Below are positions 8,191-57,573 of a stretch of 64,000 bases of DNA, in pieces. The stretch is from the NCBI RefSeq assembly GCF_024700885.2, contig NZ_CP117014.1; one strand, given 5' to 3'. The notes under the pieces were generated by a model. That model saw only the letters and a list, made by a program, of their open reading frames with translations, was not told the origin of the DNA and ran no database searches. The first letter of the stretch is position 1; each line of letters begins with the position of its first letter. Position numbers and translations under genes: made by a program. This stretch comes from Escherichia coli. Its GTDB lineage: Bacteria > Pseudomonadota > Gammaproteobacteria > Enterobacterales > Enterobacteriaceae.

Positions 8191-8348
8191 GGTTAAGCCC
8201 TAAATTCGGGCGCGGCGTGAAGGTTCTTTTGACGGGATAACAATACCTACTTTGTGATTTAGTCAATAGGTTTAGTAAAATAAAATCTATTAACACTCAT
8301 GTTGTTATGTGATTTAATTTTAGTTTTCTAACACAAATCATTAGAGTT

Positions 8349-11255: not shown

Positions 11256-12212
11256 ATGCGCATTTTTATCGATGATGGTTCAACCAATATCAAAATGCTG
11301 TGGGAGCACGACGGGGAAACTCGCACTCACATCAGCCCTAACAGCTTTAAGCGCGGATGGTCAGCAACATTTTGTGCTGGCAAGCCGTTTAACTATGTCA
11401 TTGACGACGAAAAGTATTCGTATGATTTGATCTCGCCAGATGTTCTGCCGACGAATAACGTGGAATGGCAATACAGCCCGCTTAACGTCCTGGCTGTTCA
11501 CCATGCCCTGCTGACAAGTGGCATTGAGCCGCAGGAAGTAGAAATTGTGGTCACGCTGCCTCTGGCGGAGTTTTACGACGACGACGCGCAATACAATCTC
11601 GATAACATCGAGCGCAAGAAAGCCAGCCTTATGCGCCCCGTCACGCTGAATAAAGGCAATGTGTTCACGATTAAGAAAGTTACGGTACGACCGGAGTCTA
11701 TTCCGGCAGGAATTGGCCTGTGCGACAATCTGAACCCTGCCCATTCTATTCTTATCGTCGATTTGGGTGGAACTACCCTTGATGTTTCAATGGTCGCCGG
11801 GCAAATGACGGCAGTTTCCCGTGTTTTTGGCGATTCGAATCTTGGCGTCTCTCTGGTTACCAGGGAAGTAAGGCAAGCGCTTGCCAGAGCCAATACCGAA
11901 ACGTCAAATTACAATGTTGATCAGCTCATTATTAACCGCCACGATGAAGATTATCTGAATGACAATATCAATGACCCATCAGCGATTGGTGATGTGAAAA
12001 AGGCCATTGCCGCAAGCATTGACCGTCTGCGTACCCGCGTTCTTGATGTGATTGGCGACTTTAAAGGATATACGCATGTCATGGTGATCGGTGGTGGCGC
12101 ACCGCTGGTGGCAGATGCAATTCGCGAGCAAGTTAATATTCGTGATGACCGTTTCTTCGTGGCGGATGACCCGCAACTTGCTCTTGTTCATGGCCTGAAA
12201 GCAATCGGTTAA
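11256..12212 (+). CDS. parM: ParM actin-like plasmid segregation ATPase
   Basis: IFIDDGSTNIK phosphate-1 motif and full-length similarity to R1 ParM/StbA; ATG at 11256 with RBS (track ORF starts at upstream GTG 11232). Confidence 0.85.
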   Translation: MRIFIDDGSTNIKMLWEHDGETRTHISPNSFKRGWSATFCAGKPFNYVIDDEKYSYDLISPDVLPTNNVEWQYSPLNVLAVHHALLTSGIEPQEVEIVVTLPLAEFYDDDAQYNLDNIERKKASLMRPVTLNKGNVFTIKKVTVRPESIPAGIGLCDNLNPAHSILIVDLGGTTLDVSMVAGQMTAVSRVFGDSNLGVSLVTREVRQALARANTETSNYNVDQLIINRHDEDYLNDNINDPSAIGDVKKAIAASIDRLRTRVLDVIGDFKGYTHVMVIGGGAPLVADAIREQVNIRDDRFFVADDPQLALVHGLKAIG

Positions 12213-23681: not shown

Positions 23682-24878
23682 TCAAGAACCTTTCTTCACA
23701 TACTCCATGAACATTTTTTCAGCCTGCTCAGGTGACGTTCCTGCCATGACAAGCGCATCAATGAACGCCTGCTTCTTCAGTGCGAACTGATCGGCAAGGC
23801 GTTGCTGAAGCTCCTTGTTTTTCTGTTTCTCACGTTGCAAGGCCGCTTCTTTTGCTGCCGCCCGTTTTTTCTGTGCGTCTGACAACTTTCTGGCTTTGGT
23901 CAATTGGTCACGTAGCTTGTCAATTTTGCCGTTGTCCTTTGCCAGTTTTGTGCTTAAAGCGGCCTGGCGCTTCTGATAGAGCCTCCATTCGCGCTTGGCA
24001 GCGTCAACGTTTGTTTTACTGTTGCGATTGCGATTAAACTCCCTCTCGTCTTCTTTTGAGAAGTGTTTGGTTGTACGGCGGCGATCGTCACCAAATGCAA
24101 TTTGCGTTGCGGCCTTTTGTAACGCACGAGCAATACTCATTTGCCAACTGGCGGACTGTAACCGCGTCATTGAGTGGATCACGTGTTTACAGGCGACGCC
24201 TTGTAGCTTAGGGTTACGAACTTTTGGATAGGCGTATTCTTTTGGCGGGGCCAGGGCAAAGTTACCTGCAGTAGCGATGTAACGATACCAGTATTGATGA
24301 CGACCACAGTCACAATCGAAAGACACCCGCCCAGCGCACAGTGATTTAGTGATTTTCAGAGCTGATTTATCGTCTTCTGCGATGTCATCGACCATCTGAT
24401 CCCATTCTTCAAAGCGTATCCGGACGATATGGTGCTGGTGGACGGATATATCCGATGCTTCTACGCGGATATTAATCACGTTGTGGCGAAGAGATACGGG
24501 TGTAGCTCTTTTGATACCAGATCCGTCATCCACGGCGTTATTTGCACGCTTAATATCGATTGCCTGGCTGGATGCCACCAGCTGGGCGTATGTGATGCCA
24601 GCCGTCTTGCTGTCATATTTTTCGCGTGTTTTACTCCGTAGCTTTTCGAAACCTTTCAGGTCGTCTCGCGTGAAGAACGTGCCGCCTTTTTTCTTCCCTA
24701 ACTTGAGAATATCTTCGGCGGATTTGTTCCTCAGTCTACCTGGCGTCAGCGTCCGGTGAGCTTGTCGGCGCTTACGGGTTTGTTCTTTCCTGATAAGGTC
24801 GAATAAACGCGTGAAGTCCTTAGAGGACAGGCCGTCAGTGATATAGCGCCCGTCCTGGTTTTTCAGGAAATCAGGCAT
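23682..24878 (-). CDS. SWIM-type zinc-finger protein with basic N-terminus and K/R/Q-rich coiled-coil C-terminus (398 aa)
   Basis: CDCGRHQYW...(25)...CKHVIH matches a CxC-Xn-CxH SWIM finger. Confidence 0.45.
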   Translation of the reverse strand: MPDFLKNQDGRYITDGLSSKDFTRLFDLIRKEQTRKRRQAHRTLTPGRLRNKSAEDILKLGKKKGGTFFTRDDLKGFEKLRSKTREKYDSKTAGITYAQLVASSQAIDIKRANNAVDDGSGIKRATPVSLRHNVINIRVEASDISVHQHHIVRIRFEEWDQMVDDIAEDDKSALKITKSLCAGRVSFDCDCGRHQYWYRYIATAGNFALAPPKEYAYPKVRNPKLQGVACKHVIHSMTRLQSASWQMSIARALQKAATQIAFGDDRRRTTKHFSKEDEREFNRNRNSKTNVDAAKREWRLYQKRQAALSTKLAKDNGKIDKLRDQLTKARKLSDAQKKRAAAKEAALQREKQKNKELQQRLADQFALKKQAFIDALVMAGTSPEQAEKMFMEYVKKGS

Positions 24879-25200
24879 TTTCTATCTCCGGTTCCGCGCT
24901 CGCGTAATCACGGATCTTGTTCCTCAGCCATGCCACATCAGGAAGAGTTAACGTGGTCCCGGCGGGCATTTCTTCCATTTCTGACTCATGGCCCACCAGC
25001 ACCCGGAATACCCAGCGCAAATCTGCATTGCCATACGCCCGGTAGGCTGCAAGGTCTGAACGATATACTTCATCAATCTTTATCGTGTACTGGAAATTAT
25101 CAGAGTGATACTCCGATACCCGCTTAATCATTTCCTGGTGAAACAGCGCACGAAAAATATCGTCTTCAATGTACCTATCGTCGAGTCTGCTATAGCCCAT
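24871..25200 (-). CDS. Hypothetical protein (109 aa), translationally coupled to SWIM protein
   Basis: 8-nt overlap with downstream gene. Confidence 0.4.
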   Translation of the reverse strand: MGYSRLDDRYIEDDIFRALFHQEMIKRVSEYHSDNFQYTIKIDEVYRSDLAAYRAYGNADLRWVFRVLVGHESEMEEMPAGTTLTLPDVAWLRNKIRDYASAEPEIENA

Positions 25201-25372
25201 AACAAAGCCTCTCAGTCATAACCTGGGGGAAACTGTATGCAGGGTGTGAAATGCGAGAAACAGACAGGTCACCATAAATCCCCTCACTGGTGACAAGTGA
25301 CTTTCATTAATCTTTATGCGGGGGCCAGCTTCATTTGCTGGCATTAGATTAAAAATTAAACGGAGTGAATGA

Positions 25373-25507
25373 CATGGATGTTATATTCGAATTATTAATG
25401 CTAATTGATCTGTTTATGAACGCTTCATTGACCACTCAAATACTCGCGTCAATATTTTTGTTACTCTTCTACCTGGTATTGAGGGAGTTAACAAAGCTAC
25501 TAATGTG
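25373..25507 (+). CDS. Small hydrophobic peptide (44 aa), candidate membrane-active toxin-like peptide
   Basis: MDVIFELLMLIDLFMNASLTTQILASIFLLLFYLVLRELTKLLM; GGAG 12 nt upstream; below the track's 60-aa cutoff. Confidence 0.3.
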
Positions 25508-25508
25508 A

Positions 25509-26162
25509 TCAAAGTATCACGGTATCTTCATCAACTTCTTTCCCAGCCAGTGACTTTGGCTGGGAGGTGCCTGCTTTAACTTTTTCATGCCCAATAATGG
25601 ACAGGAACGAAGCGAGTATGCCTGTTTTTTGCTCTTTCTCGACTGTACCGGTCATCTGCTCTACATAATCTGCACTGGCAACGTTGTGGTATACGGTCGC
25701 GTAGCAACACAGGATCATCAAAATATGCTCCGGCCTGATATCCTGCCAGTTCACCCTGTAGACTTCTTCTCCGTTACCGTTGTATTCGGTATCAACGATA
25801 GAGTCGGGGATTTCGAAAGCACCTTTGTTATTTTGCGGCAGGGATAATAGTTTCTGGAGTTTTAACTCTCTGTATCTTTCCATCCCAACGATGATTGCTG
25901 CTCTACCATCGGCATGACGGGTCTTGAGAGTCACCTGGCTTGCTCCGGTGCCAGCGGAGATCGTTGGCGTAATTTCGTCTACTAGAACCTTAAATTTGCT
26001 TTTCCGCAGGGCTGCTATAGCTGGAGGAATTTTTTGCTTTTGCTCCAATGCTGACGCGGGAAGGGGTTTTACTTCGTTAATAATGAGAGCACCGTCTTTC
26101 AGTATTGCAGTGAGCATTTGAGGCTTGCTGGTGGTCAGGCTGAATATTGCGATCTTTTCCAT
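25509..26162 (-). CDS. Hypothetical protein (217 aa from ATG 26162, GGAGGAAGG RBS)
   Basis: Track ORF extends to 26204 but a strong RBS precedes the internal ATG and a terminator hairpin occupies 26197-26213. Confidence 0.4.
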   Translation of the reverse strand: MEKIAIFSLTTSKPQMLTAILKDGALIINEVKPLPASALEQKQKIPPAIAALRKSKFKVLVDEITPTISAGTGASQVTLKTRHADGRAAIIVGMERYRELKLQKLLSLPQNNKGAFEIPDSIVDTEYNGNGEEVYRVNWQDIRPEHILMILCCYATVYHNVASADYVEQMTGTVEKEQKTGILASFLSIIGHEKVKAGTSQPKSLAGKEVDEDTVIL

Positions 26163-26189
26163 TTTCCTTCCTCCACGGATGACGGATAC

Positions 26190-26213
26190 AAAAAAAGGCC
26201 GCACATGGCGGCC
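26190..26213 (-). terminator. Rho-independent terminator (minus strand)
   Basis: GGCCGC-acat-GCGGCC with A7 on plus strand = U7 tail on minus. Confidence 0.5.
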
Positions 26214-26430
26214 TGCTTTGGCGTTATGACTCCCTACCGCGCTTCGGCTGAAAGTTAATCGTCAAAAGAACCTTCAACGGGAGCCGTTAGCGCGATGGAT
26301 TATGTGCAGTTTGTGATTTCCAAAATAGTGTCAACCACTTTTTGTGGATTTTATTTTTTGACCGAAATTTGGCCTAAATCATGTTGATGTAGTTAATTGT
26401 TTTTATAACATAAAACTTCATTTTGTTTAC

Positions 26431-27054
26431 ATGAAGGATGGTGTAGTGAAGTTAAGGGTTTTAGGGGCCGCGCTCGCGGCTATGTTGGGATGCGTATCTG
26501 CTAATACTGCCAATGCAACTGCGTTACCTGCACAATTCAGGGCAGGGCAGCAGGTTATGAATAATGCTGGTGGGGATCATTCACAAGCGGCCATTATGGA
26601 CTTTTGCAAGAGGGAGGGCATTCCATTACGGCCTGTTGGAACTCAGTTTATTGGTAAAACTGACTTTTGCGTTTTTGCATATACAGCATATCTGACGGAC
26701 AAAGCTATAACAAAAACAGGTTATTCAACCAAAGATACTCTTTCCAGATTAAGTCAGGGATGGCAGCAATTCGAAGTGTATCGCCAGCAAGGATTAGGTG
26801 AGTTATTGCAACCACTTTTTATGCTTGCGTTGGTGCCCGAGGGGCAGCAATTTTTGGTTAAAAAGGGAATGCTTCGCCAAAGTGATATTGCCGGGTTCGA
26901 TAGCATGATGGCTTATGAGCGCAAACTAACCGAGCAGCGAAATAAAAAACCATCTGCTTCATGTGTGCAAAGTAAAACAGCAGAATACAGTGCAGTAGCC
27001 GGGCCTTTAGCCAAACAAATGGCAGAGCAATGGTGTAAAAAATACGGGCAATAA
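26431..27054 (+). CDS. Exported protein with signal peptide (207 aa)
   Basis: N-terminal LGAALAAMLGCVSANTANA signal-like segment. Confidence 0.5.
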   Translation: MKDGVVKLRVLGAALAAMLGCVSANTANATALPAQFRAGQQVMNNAGGDHSQAAIMDFCKREGIPLRPVGTQFIGKTDFCVFAYTAYLTDKAITKTGYSTKDTLSRLSQGWQQFEVYRQQGLGELLQPLFMLALVPEGQQFLVKKGMLRQSDIAGFDSMMAYERKLTEQRNKKPSASCVQSKTAEYSAVAGPLAKQMAEQWCKKYGQ

Positions 27055-27074
27055 GTTACGCAGCGGAGGCAGAA

Positions 27075-27467
27075 TTGAAAAGATTGACAATTGCTTTACT
27101 GGCGTCTTTCCCTTTGATCGCGAGCGCCGGAAATTTACAAGTTAAGTGCGGTCGGTTTGATATAAAAATCTATCCAGATGCCATATTTCTGAATGGGAAT
27201 AAGGTTGATAACGTACACCGAAAAACTGAATCTGACGTAATGAGCTATGTGTTCCAGGAGTATGCGGAGATGGGGGGAACTTACACGCTGTACTCGCTGG
27301 ATGTTCCTTCTCGCGGTGATATGACATTATCCCATCAATGGCAGAACGCCGATGGCGAAGCTCTGCGCGAAGTTAAAACAGAAAAATGTGGCACTTTCCA
27401 TTCTTTTAAAGGGAAAGTGCCAAATGTTAAATCTGTGCTTGAAAAACAGCGCGCAGGTGATTTTTAA
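27075..27467 (+). CDS. Exported protein with signal peptide (130 aa)
   Basis: MKRLTIALLASFPLIASA signal peptide. Confidence 0.5.
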   Translation: MKRLTIALLASFPLIASAGNLQVKCGRFDIKIYPDAIFLNGNKVDNVHRKTESDVMSYVFQEYAEMGGTYTLYSLDVPSRGDMTLSHQWQNADGEALREVKTEKCGTFHSFKGKVPNVKSVLEKQRAGDF

Positions 27468-27489
27468 ACTGTGTTAGCACTTTGAACAT

Positions 27490-27535
27490 GGCGACAACAC
27501 ATCTTGGTGGCTGCGTTGTCGCTGTATGTTTTTAT
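27490..27535 (+). terminator. Rho-independent terminator
   Basis: GCGACAAC...GTTGTCGC stem followed by TGTATGTTTTTAT. Confidence 0.5.
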
Positions 27536-27555
27536 AATATAAAGCATTAAAGTTT

Positions 27556-28185
27556 TCATTTTTGTCGGATCTTTTCCAGCATATTTAATTCATTATCACT
27601 TTCTGCTGCTGAGACGGTTGGCCTCACATTTCCGAAATATTTCCTGTGAGACTCATGACTTATGTATTCACCGACAGTTTCATTCTTGAATATACGAATT
27701 TGACATATGCGAGATCCAACAATAAGTTCTACAGGGCTATTCCCATGATTAAATAACTCTAAAGATATACAGCCTCTGTACCCTGGTTGTATCATGGTAT
27801 TTAATGAAAGACCAAGCCTTGTATAGCTGCTTCTGGACAATACATCAGCGTAGCAATCTGGTGGCAAACAAACATATTCTAATGTTGTTGCCAGTACCAC
27901 TTGATTCGGGTAAACAATGAACCTATCCCCAAGATCTCTCCTTGTTTCCTGGAAAAATGTTCTGATTGGTTGATGAGTATCATTGTTTTTTGAGGGAATT
28001 AACTCTATTGACGGCTTCCTTGTCATAATAGACACTAAAAAATCGTAACCAAGTCTAAGGTCTATGGTGAAGTTTCCAATTTGGTTTTTATTTAGAAGAG
28101 GTTCAATGAACAACGACTCAGGTTCTTCTGATTCATAATATTGCAGCAATTCAGCTTTGCTTAGGAGATTCATTGTGCACTCCAT
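27556..28185 (-). CDS. dCTP deaminase (Dcd/dUTPase-fold) homolog
   Basis: 209 aa collinear with E. coli Dcd: IDLRLG, LATTLEYVCLP, RSSYTRLGL, GYRGCISLELFNHG; putative catalytic Ser/Arg/Glu conserved. Confidence 0.7.
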   Translation of the reverse strand: MECTMNLLSKAELLQYYESEEPESLFIEPLLNKNQIGNFTIDLRLGYDFLVSIMTRKPSIELIPSKNNDTHQPIRTFFQETRRDLGDRFIVYPNQVVLATTLEYVCLPPDCYADVLSRSSYTRLGLSLNTMIQPGYRGCISLELFNHGNSPVELIVGSRICQIRIFKNETVGEYISHESHRKYFGNVRPTVSAAESDNELNMLEKIRQK

Positions 28186-29243
28186 TTTTCAAGAATCATT
28201 ACGTTTCGAATCGATTTTTCAACCAAATCATTTATAGTTTTTTCTATGGCTTCTTTTGACAACCCAGACCATATACCCGTAGGTTTTTCCCATTCAGAGC
28301 ATAAGTACTGCCAGCTGCTGTTAATAAAAGCATGCATTTCATTGTGGTCGCGAATAACAAAAGGACGCACATTATCAAAAGCTGATTTCACATCAAGCAA
28401 AGGTGTCGGCAATGTCAAACAAGGAGAAATAATCTGCCCACCCTTATGTAAGGCTGATATCACAGCATTGAACATGCCAACAACTGGATTTTCCACTTTG
28501 TTCAAAAAGTCGCTTACAATTTTAACTCTATCTTCTGTGGATGGGTGAGTATAGCTTGCAGGATGAGAGCCAGCTAATTTGTATAAGAAATCTACCCCAC
28601 TTTTTCCAATAAATTGGGCACTAAATAGATCTGCAAAATATTCTCTGCAATGATTTATCCAAATAACATCAGGTAGATTACTCCATTCTGGTCCTGGAAG
28701 TGTGCCTTTGTCCTTGGAACGATAGTTAAGACAGGCAAGCTCAGAAATACCTTTGCTAATATCAACGAAATGTCCCAATTCGTGATATAAAGGTATAGAG
28801 CATAATGGTCGTCTTCTGTACATTTCAGGTAATGAAATCTGAATTAATTCGACCTCGAATTTGACATTTAAAACTTCATCAAATAAAGAATACAAATTCT
28901 TGTTTACAGACTTAAAATAAAACCCATGCATATCTGGAGATAGGGCTGTGGTTATAAGTGTTTTTTCACTTATCCATTTTTTACAGGCATCATTTAAGCA
29001 ATAAACAATCTCGTAGGGAATTTTCTTTGTAGTACTGCCAGTGAAAAAATTAACTGCATCGGTGATAAAAAAAGTACAATCCGCAATTATTTTATCAGCA
29101 ACATTCACATGGTTTTCATAGAGCTTATCTACCGCTTCTTGTAGAACAGCAAGATATTCATGCATGTCTTTAGAAAAATAGGGAGATTCTGATATCTCCC
29201 TTAGCTTATTTCGAACTAATGTAAGTTGTGTAAATGCAAGCAT
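28170..29243 (-). CDS. HExxH zinc metallopeptidase-like protein (ImmA/IrrE-like motif)
   Basis: 357 aa; HELGH at residues 154-158 with downstream EYFADLFSAQFI; 16-nt overlap with Dcd-like gene. Confidence 0.5.
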   Translation of the reverse strand: MLAFTQLTLVRNKLREISESPYFSKDMHEYLAVLQEAVDKLYENHVNVADKIIADCTFFITDAVNFFTGSTTKKIPYEIVYCLNDACKKWISEKTLITTALSPDMHGFYFKSVNKNLYSLFDEVLNVKFEVELIQISLPEMYRRRPLCSIPLYHELGHFVDISKGISELACLNYRSKDKGTLPGPEWSNLPDVIWINHCREYFADLFSAQFIGKSGVDFLYKLAGSHPASYTHPSTEDRVKIVSDFLNKVENPVVGMFNAVISALHKGGQIISPCLTLPTPLLDVKSAFDNVRPFVIRDHNEMHAFINSSWQYLCSEWEKPTGIWSGLSKEAIEKTINDLVEKSIRNVMILEKWSAQ

Positions 29244-31363: not shown

Positions 31364-31548
31364 ATTGGCAGCCTCCTTTGACTAAGTTAAGGAGCTACCG
31401 CGTGAGGTTCCAATCTCAATGGCGGTAGCACTGACTGGGTTGGAACTACCGGCGTCAAAGGGAACCGGCCTGCCTTTCGGCAGCCCAGCCAGCACTACCA
31501 TTGATCTCTGAGCTAAACGCTACGTATGGCTGTGCGATGGCATGACAC

Positions 31549-31569
31549 AAAAAAGACGCTTTCGGCGTC
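31549..31569 (-). terminator. Rho-independent terminator (minus strand)
   Basis: GACGC-tttcg-GCGTC with A6 on plus = U6 on minus. Confidence 0.5.
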
Positions 31570-31674
31570 TGTGTCGCCTTTGACATTATCCGGGGTTCCA
31601 ATCCCGGCACCCGTTTTTCTAAGGTGCCGTAGAAATATACCCCACGATAATGCTAGGGCGCAACAGTCAGTATT

Positions 31675-56278: not shown

Positions 56279-56354
56279 TGGTGGCCCCTACCGGACTTGA
56301 ACCGGTGACCGTGCGATTATGAGTCGCCCGCTCTAACCACTGAGCTAAAGGGCC
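56279..56354 (-). tRNA. tRNA with CAU anticodon (Ile2/Met-type)
   Basis: Reverse complement gives 76-nt cloverleaf ending CCA, anticodon loop CTCATAA; very similar to E. coli ileX from memory. Confidence 0.8.
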
Positions 56355-56783
56355 AGATTACTGTTAATTACGCTTACGCTTTTTGCCAGAACCGCGTAAG
56401 GCTTTTGCCGCTTGCTCTACCCCGTATGCAACCACCAGCAGAAACAATAATGTCCACTCCGGGTTTTTATCGGCAAACGCCCAAAAATCCATCACTTGCA
56501 GCCACCTTTTAAGACAAAACGCCATTGCTGTTAGGTTGCGGTGCCGGGCGCCTCCCGGTGACGTTAACCAGTTAACAATTAACGCCGGATCACTTATGGA
56601 TTCTCGTTACGCCAGTAAAAAGACCACCTTTACTGTTTTAACTGTTCCGCGTGCGCTTAGCCGCATTCACCGCAATGGTAAGAGCATTTGGCTGACTGGG
56701 CGGCGATGACGCCTGTACGCATTTGGTGATCCGGTTCTGCTTCCGGCATTCGCTTAATTAGCCAAATACCCTTAATGTTGCAC

Positions 56784-56870
56784 TGGCGGAGAGTAATGGA
56801 ATCGAACCATCATCGCTTGCGCAATGGGACGGTTTTCAAGACCGCTTGAGCACCATGCTCCCTACTCTCC
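56784..56870 (-). tRNA. tRNA-Ser (UGA), type II with long variable arm
   Basis: 87 nt, acceptor GGAGAGT/ACTCTCC, anticodon stem GCGGT/ACCGT, loop CTTGAAA, T-loop TTCGATT, 3' GCCA. Confidence 0.7.
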
Positions 56871-57324
56871 CGTTATTGTGGCGACCGGTGCTGATCTCCG
56901 GCTTGCGGTTATTTCAGACTCTCACGGGCGTTTAATTGCCCCGCCGAACAGCTCTTTTCCGCAATAGCTGCAATGTCTTTCGCGCATCAGCCTGCGCATT
57001 CACCACAATGTTGAGAACACTGGTTGTCACGCTGCAACGCAACATTTATTCGTAGATTGGGATATGACCCCGTTACGCCAGTGTTCTCAACGTTGTAGTG
57101 CCGGTTACGGTTCCGGCCAGACCTCTTCCTCAACGGGGTGTTCTCCATACGGACTACCGTTTATTGGTCGTTCCTGCGGTTTATGTTGTGAAGCCAGATG
57201 CTTATCTTCTGGTTGCTTCAAAGAGCTGCACTTCATCACAACGGTAAGAGCATTTATGGCTCGCATCGCGGGAAAAAGCCCACGGTAGAGAGTCGAACTC
57301 TACAAATGCTCTTACCTGTTGTGT

Positions 57325-57400
57325 TGGTGCCGGTTAACGGGATCGAACCGCTGACCATTCGCTTACAAAGCGACTGCTCTACCAACTGAGCTAAACCGGC
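57325..57400 (-). tRNA. tRNA-Thr (UGU)
   Basis: 76 nt, acceptor GCCGGTT/AACCGGC, D-arm GCTCAGTTGGTAGAGC, loop TTTGTAA, T-loop TTCGATC, CCA. Confidence 0.8.
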
Positions 57401-57404
57401 AATT

Positions 57405-57491
57405 TGGTGGGGAGTGATGGAGTCGAACCACCCGAGTCGCAATGACAGTAGATTTACAGTCTACCCCGCTACCCCTACGGACTAACTCCCC
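57405..57491 (-). tRNA. tRNA-Tyr (GUA), type II
   Basis: 87 nt, acceptor GGGGAGT/ACTCCCC, anticodon stem GTAGA/TCTAC, loop CTGTAAA, CCA. Confidence 0.75.
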
Positions 57492-57496
57492 TAAAT

Positions 57497-57573
57497 TGGC
57501 GATGGTGGGTGGATTCGAACCACCTACCGAAAGCTTAGAAGGCTGCTGTTCTATCCTACTGAGCTACACCATC
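57497..57573 (-). tRNA. tRNA-Arg (UCU)-like
   Basis: 77 nt, acceptor GATGGTG/CACCATC, loop CTTCTAA as in E. coli argU, T-arm GGTGG-TTCGAAT-CCACC, CCA; one mismatch in anticodon stem. Confidence 0.6.

Follow-up and report, generated by a model that had tools for sequence, protein, structure and literature searches.

A terminated leader RNA upstream of the phage-plasmid gene mat with co-varying complementarity to the capsid mRNA: a candidate base-pairing RNA in the P1 family

The 64,000-nucleotide stretch of Escherichia coli contig NZ_CP117014.1 analysed here (the window) is identified by sequence matches as part of a D6-like plasmid prophage of the P1 family. Its 268-bp divergent intergenic region at 26163-26430 contains, on the minus strand, a leader which ends in an intrinsic terminator directly upstream of the gene mat and which carries, in one of its hairpins, a 17-nt perfect complement of the 5' end predicted for the major capsid mRNA. 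This complementarity recurs with changed sequences in all 11 cognate leader pairs that were compared. On balance, we regard it as probable that the mat leader functions as an RNA and pairs with the capsid leader, whereas our confidence that the pairing specifically activates capsid synthesis is lower. The most fitting description of the element is that of a new family of base-pairing RNAs derived from phage leaders, with a mechanism of a known kind.

Complementarity between the mat leader and the capsid mRNA

The window was searched for complements of the leader RNA. The stretch UGAAGGUUCUUUUGACG (26276-26260, minus strand), comprising the 5' strand of the second arm of the folded leader and most of its loop, is a perfect 17-nt complement of CGUCAAAAGAACCUUCA (8234-8218, minus strand), and none of 1000 dinucleotide shuffles of the leader RNA reaches 17 nt. 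The proposed target lies 28-44 nt upstream of the GUG start codon (8190) of the major capsid gene, a homologue of P1 gene 23, and the promoter of that gene is situated directly upstream, such that the complement begins at about +1 of the predicted capsid mRNA. Similarly, the target in P1 begins directly after the annotated late promoter LP23.

Concerning the related lineages (those other than named phages and genera are given by our own labels), capsid leaders were taken from those contigs or genomes that had supplied the mat leaders, yielding 11 cognate pairs. All of them are complementary at the same relative position despite their differing sequences, and the complementarity is found in every related lineage with the element whose capsid gene could be examined. 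Apart from the D6 pair with its 17 bp, the duplexes comprise 18 bp with one G.U in L036, 17 bp with three G.U in the Enterobacter type L042, 15 bp with one internal mismatch in Leclercia and L043 (GAGG-G-UACUUUUGACA with UGUCAAAAGUA-A-CCUC), 12 contiguous bp with one G.U in L051 (GGAAUUUUUGAC with GUCAAAAGUUCC), and 14 perfect bp in L310 (GAGGUUUUUUGGCG with CGCCAAAAAACCUC). P1 (UGGAUCCCUUUUC with GAAAAGGGAUUCA) and L088, i.e., Cronobacter phage JK004 (GGGACUCUUUUCA with UGAAAAGAGUUCC), possess 13 bp each, including one G.U. The cognate duplexes are predicted at -18 to -28 kcal/mol, compared with -5.5 to -8 kcal/mol for shuffled targets (0-1 of 1000 shuffles reaching the cognate value), and combinations of leaders and targets from different clades reach just -4 to -12 kcal/mol.

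The sequences change on both sides in a compensatory manner: GGUUC/GAACC is replaced by GGAAU/GUUCC, GAC/GUC by GGC/GCC, and the P1 clade uses CCCUUUUC/GAAAAGGG. Within this pairing, the predicted loop CUUUUGACG is complementary to the mRNA 5' end GUCAAAAG, again in 11 of 11 pairs and with co-variation. A conserved seed exposed in a loop and compensatory co-evolution of regulator and target are the sequence features of a trans-acting small RNA (sRNA), and both are found here.

Two copies of a motif might also co-vary because a phage DNA-binding protein binds the 13-17 bp as DNA and both sites follow its drifting specificity. Such co-variation would look alike at the DNA level, and both copies do lie just downstream of similar promoters. 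However, the motif is non-palindromic, and the copies differ in their distance from the promoter (about +17 to +33 in the mat leader versus +1 to +17 in the capsid leader) and are oppositely oriented. Moreover, the copy in the mat leader is embedded in a hairpin, as its loop and one of its strands, and the opposite strand co-varies with it, and the end of the copy in the capsid leader is part of a co-varying stem with the start codon. The two copies of L042 differ at three positions, all of them G.U-compatible, and the 11 pairs together comprise 164 Watson-Crick pairs, 10 G.U pairs and 8 unpaired internal positions; this tolerance of G.U points to RNA pairing rather than to a shared DNA site, which we consider quite improbable.

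The pairing was also used for a blind prediction. In L246 and L247 the capsid leader reads ACGCCAAAAAACCUCUCA, from which a mat leader containing GAGGUUUUUUGG followed by GCGCGG was predicted. A scan of all viral contigs for this pattern gave 24 matches, two of which were on exactly the L246 and L247 contigs. The one match that was examined, in L310, is located 5' of a mat homologue, between a promoter with a AAATCACACA box and a terminator (GGCCGC-UUAU-GCGGCC-U6) that ends about 17 nt upstream of this homologue. Compared with D6, the L310 pair exhibits two compensatory double changes (GAC/GUC to GGC/GCC and CUUUU/AAAAG to UUUUU/AAAAA). Judged by these sequences, the prediction of an unseen leader was successful.

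Besides the main complementarity, GCGCGG (26237-26242, minus strand) is invariant in leaders of the D6 clade, as is its complement CCGCGC (8210-8215, minus strand) in their capsid leaders; the counterparts in the P1 clade are GGCAC and GUGCC. As a second contact this was discarded, since 3-25% of shuffles reach it.

Structure of the leader RNA

The predicted mat-leader RNA of about 103 nt (26292-26190, minus strand), as delimited by covariance model matches and a structural alignment, consists of a three-way junction, a linker and the terminator. The junction (26285-26228) is closed by an outer helix of GGCUCCC (26285-26279) and GGGAGUC (26234-26228). Its second arm (26275-26250) is a hairpin of GAAGGUU and AACUUUC with the 12-nt loop CUUUUGACGAUU (26268-26257), and its third arm is the small hairpin GCCG-AAGCG-CGGU (26248-26236). 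The following A-rich linker AUAACGCCAAAGC (26227-26215) is predicted to be single-stranded.

This fold recurs when the lineages are folded one by one. A first covariance model, built from four D6-type sequences with the three-way junction, was used to find and realign the other lineages, which it recovered at E values of about 1e-6 to 1e-23; an earlier attempt with RNAalifold on the raw MAFFT alignment had failed because this alignment was poor. In the resulting structural alignment of 12 sequences, which is fitted to the model so that its pairing and covariation figures are to be read accordingly, 93% of cells are paired and seven pairs are changed on both sides, and covariation amounts to 0.318 as compared to 0.162 +/- 0.017 in shuffles (none of 500 reaching the observed value) and at most 0.125 in slid controls. 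The outer helix exhibits compensatory changes in four of its seven pairs (96% of cells paired), and the closing pair of the hairpin arm is A-U in seven sequences and U-A in five. A second covariance model, built from those 12 sequences, finds a single significant copy in the window and scores the unseen L310 leader at 61 bits. Because of this single copy, we rejected the possibility of a reiterated antitermination site.

P1 and L088, folded independently, show the same architecture, with a compensatory change of UAC/GUA to UGC/GCA. In P1, where the corresponding RNA would span about 2703-2815, the annotated operator Omat and promoter Pmat/LPmat are followed by a 10-bp helix CGCCCGGUAC/GUACCGGGCG around a hairpin with the loop CCCUUUUCAAAU plus a small hairpin, and then by a linker and the terminator (AAGCCGCC-GCUG-GUGGCUU UUUCUUUUUU). 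The terminator is followed by GGGGG and by an ATG at 2827, which aligns with the start of D6 Mat. In the P1 reference (NC_005856), mat is annotated from 2716, i.e., 37 codons earlier, such that 2716-2826 spans the leader and the terminator. This 5' extension is almost certainly not coding, since 1-nt indels (GGGG versus GGGGG, T6 versus T7) break the frame among P1-like contigs and the annotation of JK004 uses the short form of mat; the reference annotation of P1 mat would be corrected correspondingly.

Taken alone, the leader sequence of the window has a long hairpin as its minimum free energy (MFE) fold, with a z-score of -1.46. As a fold of the family, this hairpin (AUCGCGCU/AGCGCGGU plus GGCU/AGCC) was rejected, with 64.5% of cells paired, no better than shuffles. 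In the D6 lineage (26296-26236, minus strand), the 5' end AUCGCGCU can pair with AGCGCGGU to the exclusion of the outer helix of the junction, and L036 carries a compensatory change from U-A to A-U within this helix, which may thus matter in the D6 lineage as a lineage-specific conformational switch. A switch sequestering the Shine-Dalgarno sequence (SD) within the mat leader (CUCCC versus GGAGG) was likewise dropped, as inspection found it unconserved in the Klebsiella and Leclercia types.

Rfam contains no family matching the locus or its P1 counterpart. Its C4 antisense RNA model (RF01695) gives nothing at 26150-26450 even at E<=10, and the isrK model (RF01394) scores 14.7 bits, its gathering score being 50; this weak similarity below the threshold is limited to the linker and the terminator, and the 5' two-thirds of the model are unmatched. 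Neither a tRNA nor a transfer-messenger RNA was found in the element.

Terminator and predicted read-through into mat

The terminator hairpin (26214-26196, minus strand) reads AGGCCGC-CAUGU-GCGGCCU, i.e., seven pairs, six of them G-C, around a loop of 5 nt, and is followed by seven U (26196-26190, including the U closing the stem); its predicted energy is -13.1 kcal/mol. The mat ATG (26162) follows 34 nt after the end of the stem and 27 nt after that of the U-run. The preliminary description of this DNA, made from the sequence without database searches, had placed a minus-strand terminator with seven U about 35 bp upstream of the gene at 25509-26162, and it is present there; the stem GGCCGC/GCGGCC was also seen correctly, whereas the loop had been given as 4 nt (acat). 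In a terminator scan of 24500-28500 this site ranks first, among 10 sites as compared to 4.2 +/- 2.0 in shuffles.

Among the relatives the stem is kept, with 100% of cells paired in the structural alignment and a compensatory change of the outer pair from G-C to A-U, while the loop varies (CAUGU, AUUA, AAUC, UAUAU, CUCAGA, CUUUGA, UUAU). Conserved stem, variable loop and compensated outer pair together argue that the terminator is genuine and beyond chance. It exhibits the sequence features of an intrinsic (Rho-independent) terminator: a G+C-rich stem of at least 5 pairs, a loop of 3-8 nt, a U-run, and retention of the stem with a changing loop.

The terminator falls between the promoter and the mat SD (GGAGGAAGG, 26174-26166), so that expression of mat would need read-through. 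This arrangement is what would be expected of a purely cis-acting attenuator, in which leader and terminator throttle mat and the following genes 26 and 25, perhaps until relieved by a phage antiterminator, and the terminated RNA itself is without function; in a variant of reversed direction, the abundant 5' end of the capsid mRNA would pair with the nascent mat leader and modulate its termination. A review-type passage in PMC10695390 mentions indications of antiterminators in P1 and an attenuator-antiterminator proposal for the neighbouring ref gene; according to it, several late promoters are activated by Lpa, and experiments have demonstrated no antiterminator protein of this phage. The alternative helix AUCGCGCU/AGCGCGGU of the D6 lineage, with its compensatory change in L036 and mutually exclusive with the outer helix of the junction, would fit attenuation as well; however, this helix is no better paired family-wide than in shuffles, no alternative pairing of more than 4-5 bp was found over the 5' strand of the terminator, and the element is present once in the window rather than reiterated as an antitermination site. 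In addition, attenuation alone leaves the co-variation of the loop with the capsid leader in 11 pairs and the blind prediction unexplained. As the whole explanation we consider it, including the reversed variant, rather unlikely; as a role of the leader it is compatible with pairing in trans and forms part of that explanation.

Promoters of mat and of the capsid gene

The predicted transcription start near 26292 is derived from the only good -10-like hexamer of the region, CATAAT (26304-26299, minus strand), which is preceded at a distance of 5 nt by the box AAATCACAAA (26319-26310). The combination of AAATCACAAA, 5 nt and a -10-like hexamer occurs just twice in the window, namely upstream of mat and upstream of the capsid gene, where the promoter (8260-8240, minus strand) consists of the box at 8260-8251 and the -10 TATTGT at 8245-8240. 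As had been noted previously, a TTGACA box exists on the minus strand and it is exact (26334-26329), but in the D6, Klebsiella, Leclercia and L051 lineages it lies about 24 nt upstream of the -10-like hexamer. It is therefore probably not a canonical -35, and AAATCACAAA together with the -10 looks like the promoter core. A scan for sigma-70 consensus promoters found nothing in the intergenic region.

The annotation of P1 lists LPmat and LP23 as late promoters that depend on Lpa and share an identical -22 box AAGTGACTT, and mat additionally possesses an annotated C1 operator. The mat and gene 23 promoters of the window share AAATCACAAA instead of AAGTGACTT at the same spacing, and by analogy with LPmat and LP23 we interpret AAATCACAAA as a promoter element. 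As a general late-promoter motif it was rejected, because only mat and gene 23 carry it; either the late promoters of the D6 type are more varied than those of P1, or mat and gene 23 form a separate regulatory class.

Hairpin in the capsid leader

The capsid leader is predicted to form an inhibitory hairpin (8221-8186, minus strand), in which an outer stem of UUCACG (8221-8216) and CGUGAA (8191-8186) pairs the GUG start codon (8190-8188) and an inner stem of GCCC (8211-8208) and GGGC (8200-8197) pairs the SD. Both stems are present in the D6, Leclercia, L051 and L310 lineages. In a plain MAFFT alignment of 10 capsid leaders, 97% of cells are paired, two pairs are compensatory (C-G/U-A and A-U/G-C), and covariation is 0.253 as compared to 0.166 in shuffles (none of 500 reaching it) and at most 0.084 in slid controls.

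The last 4 nt of the proposed target (UUCA) are the first four bases of the outer stem, and in the MFE fold of P1 the same UUCA bases pair with the UUG start codon. Constraining the target site to be unpaired in silico abolishes the outer stem, while the inner, anti-SD stem stays; the overlap comprises only these 4 nt. Since the site lies too far upstream to occlude the ribosome directly and overlaps one strand of the hairpin, activation is favoured over repression: the pairing probably enhances capsid translation by an anti-antisense mechanism, by protection of the 5' end, or by both.

Conservation across relatives

The 1.8 kb surrounding the element are 99-99.8% identical to E. coli plasmids of about 90 kb, and phage D6 covers 60% of this region at 97.7% identity. 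The D6-type locus is found in 99 of 5426 complete E. coli genomes and is plasmid-borne in all of them. Homologues of Mat were found in 987 plasmid records, and about 129 records of Klebsiella plasmids match Mat.

In an alignment of seven sequences, the core CCCGUUGARGGUUCUUUUGACGAYUAACUUUCWGCCGAAGCGCGG is nearly invariant, also where the start region of mat has diverged, and among relatives whose Mat is 49-88% identical to that of the window the leader core has diverged less than the coding sequence of mat. Leclercia and Klebsiella plasmids as well as IMG/VR contigs have, at a Mat identity of only 49-56%, the same leader in front of mat. There, ref, oriented in the same direction, takes the upstream place of the divergent gene of the window. 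Among plasmid recombinants, similarity ends right at the promoter (H56 matches to 26334, H57 to 26316), and the sequence upstream of the promoter is poorly conserved. As the breakpoints fall at the promoter and the leader is retained with ref upstream, the element, by these comparisons, travels with mat rather than with the divergent gene.

Except for one 30-aa open reading frame (ORF) on the plus strand and an in-frame GTG extension of mat, the 268 bp contain no ORF. Neither resembles a gene by its sequence context, since the GTG is situated in the terminator loop and half of the 30-aa ORF in the poorly conserved part upstream of the promoter. The stretch preceding the terminator is thus gene-free, as the preliminary description had it.

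These data also bear on an ordinary terminator and spacer, i.e., a hairpin that insulates mat from upstream transcription, the remainder being unconstrained. The lack of an Rfam match and the unremarkable z-score of the single-sequence fold would agree with it. However, the leader core is more conserved than the gene it precedes and its structure co-varies; the terminator lies downstream of the promoter, and the upstream gene of JK004 has a terminator of its own; the complementarity to the capsid leader far exceeds what chance would give; and Mat identities of 33-55% exclude an artefact of recent ancestry. We consider a mere spacer hardly credible. Of the previous suggestion of an sRNA of about 110-150 nt or a leader or insulator, what has held is a conserved leader with a sequence suited to pairing in trans; its predicted size is smaller, about 103 nt, and an insulator finds no support.

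Proposed mechanism

Transcription would start near 26292 on the minus strand, at a promoter whose box and spacing are common to the capsid-gene promoter and whose P1 version is, by annotation, under the control of the C1 repressor and the late activator Lpa. The RNA would fold into the three-way junction, and most transcripts would stop at 26214-26190, releasing an RNA of about 103 nt with a 3' U-tail, whereas rare read-through would supply mat as well as genes 26 and 25. The released RNA would act in trans, with its loop CUUUUGACG nucleating the pairing with the extreme 5' end of the capsid mRNA (GUCAAAAG...) and the duplex extending into the arm to 13-18 bp. This would open the capsid-leader hairpin, shield the 5' end of the mRNA, or both, and so raise capsid protein synthesis. 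The sequence comparisons show the terminator, the conserved fold, the co-varying complementarity and the hairpin of the capsid leader, from which we infer an accumulation of the short RNA, its pairing in vivo, and an effect by activation instead of repression or processing.

Several points weigh against this interpretation. That a transcript is made, where it begins and ends and how abundant it is are all predicted from sequence; the promoter, with TTGACA 24 nt from the -10, is non-canonical and escapes the sigma-70 scan; and the U-tract of the L051 lineage is poor (UUUCGCCUUUU). The 5' strand of the arm, roughly half of the pairing site, is engaged in a helix of the leader itself, so that full pairing requires melting of the arm, and a duplex of 13-17 bp could instead be a substrate of RNase III, the direction of the effect being deduced. 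The covariance model misses the P1-type leader, and that P1-type and D6-type leaders are related is concluded only from their position, their architecture and the analogous pairing. The element is missing from mat of the Pantoea type and of Vibrio, where a plain promoter or a short spacer is found. Finally, Klebsiella IncFIB plasmids keep the leader and mat and have no capsid gene, and the leader can therefore persist, at least in remnants, without its proposed target.

The IncFIB plasmids concerned, represented by L177 and L010 (Klebsiella pneumoniae plasmid NZ_OW970446.1), are large sil/pco resistance plasmids with an orphan ref-leader-mat-26-25 fragment from a phage of the P1 family; no capsid gene is present within the 28 kb of NZ_OW970446.1 that were inspected.

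The leader also has the sequence features of Hfq-dependent RNAs, namely a tail of seven U and the A/U-rich single-stranded linker AUAACGCCAAAGC before the terminator hairpin. According to a preprint, P1vir grown in a delta-hfq host shows smaller heads and aberrant morphogenesis, which is compatible with the model and does not constitute evidence for it.

P1 is a phage of the textbooks and serves as a standard tool in genetics, and D6-like and P1-like phage-plasmids are common in Enterobacteriaceae. If pairing in trans takes place as proposed, a post-transcriptional layer would be added to late gene control. Since both the C1 repressor and the late activator act on the P1 mat promoter, this layer could constitute a post-transcriptional checkpoint by which capsid protein is kept off in lysogens and the production of heads is linked to the mat-baseplate operon. 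It would also explain an intrinsic terminator directly before a gene listed as essential in the literature, and the co-varying seed and target pairs would provide ready-made orthogonal pairs of RNA regulators.

Comparison with known systems

In the literature surveyed, which does not include the P1 genome paper (PMC523184), c4 is the only regulatory RNA named for P1. We suggest, tentatively, that a second one exists in the P1 family, namely a terminated mat leader that licenses translation and/or stabilisation of the capsid mRNA via its first 13-17 nt. The c4 antisense RNA (RF01695) of the immI operon and the mat leader each lie at the head of an operon, within its leader, and in both a complementarity to phage mRNA is exposed in loops, acting in c4 and proposed in the mat leader. 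Unlike c4, the mat leader would be released by termination and would target, probably positively, an unlinked gene 18 kb away.

The window also contains a c4 gene, found with Rfam as C4 antisense RNA at 31418-31505 (minus strand, 77.1 bits). Beside it an isrK-like RNA is situated at 31549-31627 (minus strand, 62.7 bits), upstream of a region that holds icd/ant (immI) in relatives. In the close relative L002, RefSeq lists at 11994-12113 a 39-aa 'ash family protein', apparently at the position corresponding to C4, which may be the C4 RNA gene mis-called as a protein.

DsrA, RprA and ArcZ are anti-antisense translational activators of the rpoS leader. As in rpoS, a conserved hairpin in the 5' untranslated region of the capsid mRNA occludes the SD and the start codon, and the proposed site for the sRNA is located on the upstream strand, far outside the ribosome footprint. 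Unlike in rpoS, the capsid site is at the very 5' end of the mRNA, overlaps the inhibitory stem by only 4 nt, and would act positively by deduction from its position; furthermore, regulator and target would both be phage late transcripts.

Trans-acting leader RNAs derived from attenuators or riboswitches are represented by rnTrpL of Sinorhizobium and by SreA and SreB of Listeria. Like these, the mat leader is proposed to be a terminated 5' leader doubling as a base-pairing RNA, with read-through expressing the downstream genes. It differs from them in having no identifiable ligand, leader peptide or alternative antiterminator structure, and its termination decision may be constitutive.

The PR'-6S RNA-tR' module of phage lambda works with Q antitermination. 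Like 6S RNA, for which we know of no base-pairing target, the mat leader is a (predicted) short terminated transcript from a late promoter directly upstream of late genes. However, it occurs once and heads only mat-26-25 instead of all late genes, and it thus lacks the features of a lambda-type late antitermination module (no search for a Q homologue was made). Also in contrast to lambda, late transcription in the P1 family is driven by the activator Lpa at several promoters, as described in PMC10695390.

Mat and the neighbouring genes

The gene at 25509-26162 (minus strand) is mat, 'maturation control', according to the annotations of D6 and RefSeq, and is similar to P1 mat; homologues of P1 genes 26 and 25 (baseplate and tail proteins) follow downstream. 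Mat has no Pfam, PHROG-function or PADLOC assignment. Its AlphaFold model (mean pLDDT 80.7) weakly resembles the RNase H-like nuclease domain of large terminases (Foldseek E value 8e-4, TM-score 0.42-0.48), which is a possible clue to its role in maturation. Mat as an RNA-binding autoregulator was dropped on account of the lacking Pfam and PADLOC matches and this weakly terminase-nuclease-like fold.

On the other side of the intergenic region, the plus-strand gene starting at 26431 is variable, being simB-like or hypothetical. Here, two divergent genes (26431-27467, plus strand) encode proteins of 207 and 130 aa, both with hydrophobic, signal-peptide-like N-termini. They occupy the position of the simB-like gene of D6 and vary among otherwise near-identical plasmids, which marks this stretch as a recombination hot spot bounded by the mat promoter. 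In the adjoining variable region, a dCTP-deaminase-like gene overlaps the gene of a 357-aa protein with an HELGH metalloprotease-like motif (27556-29243, minus strand). PADLOC gave no matches for this gene pair, which looks like a possible defence or accessory cassette. Farther away, five tRNA genes (Met, Ser, Thr, Tyr and Arg) are clustered at 56279-57573 on the minus strand.

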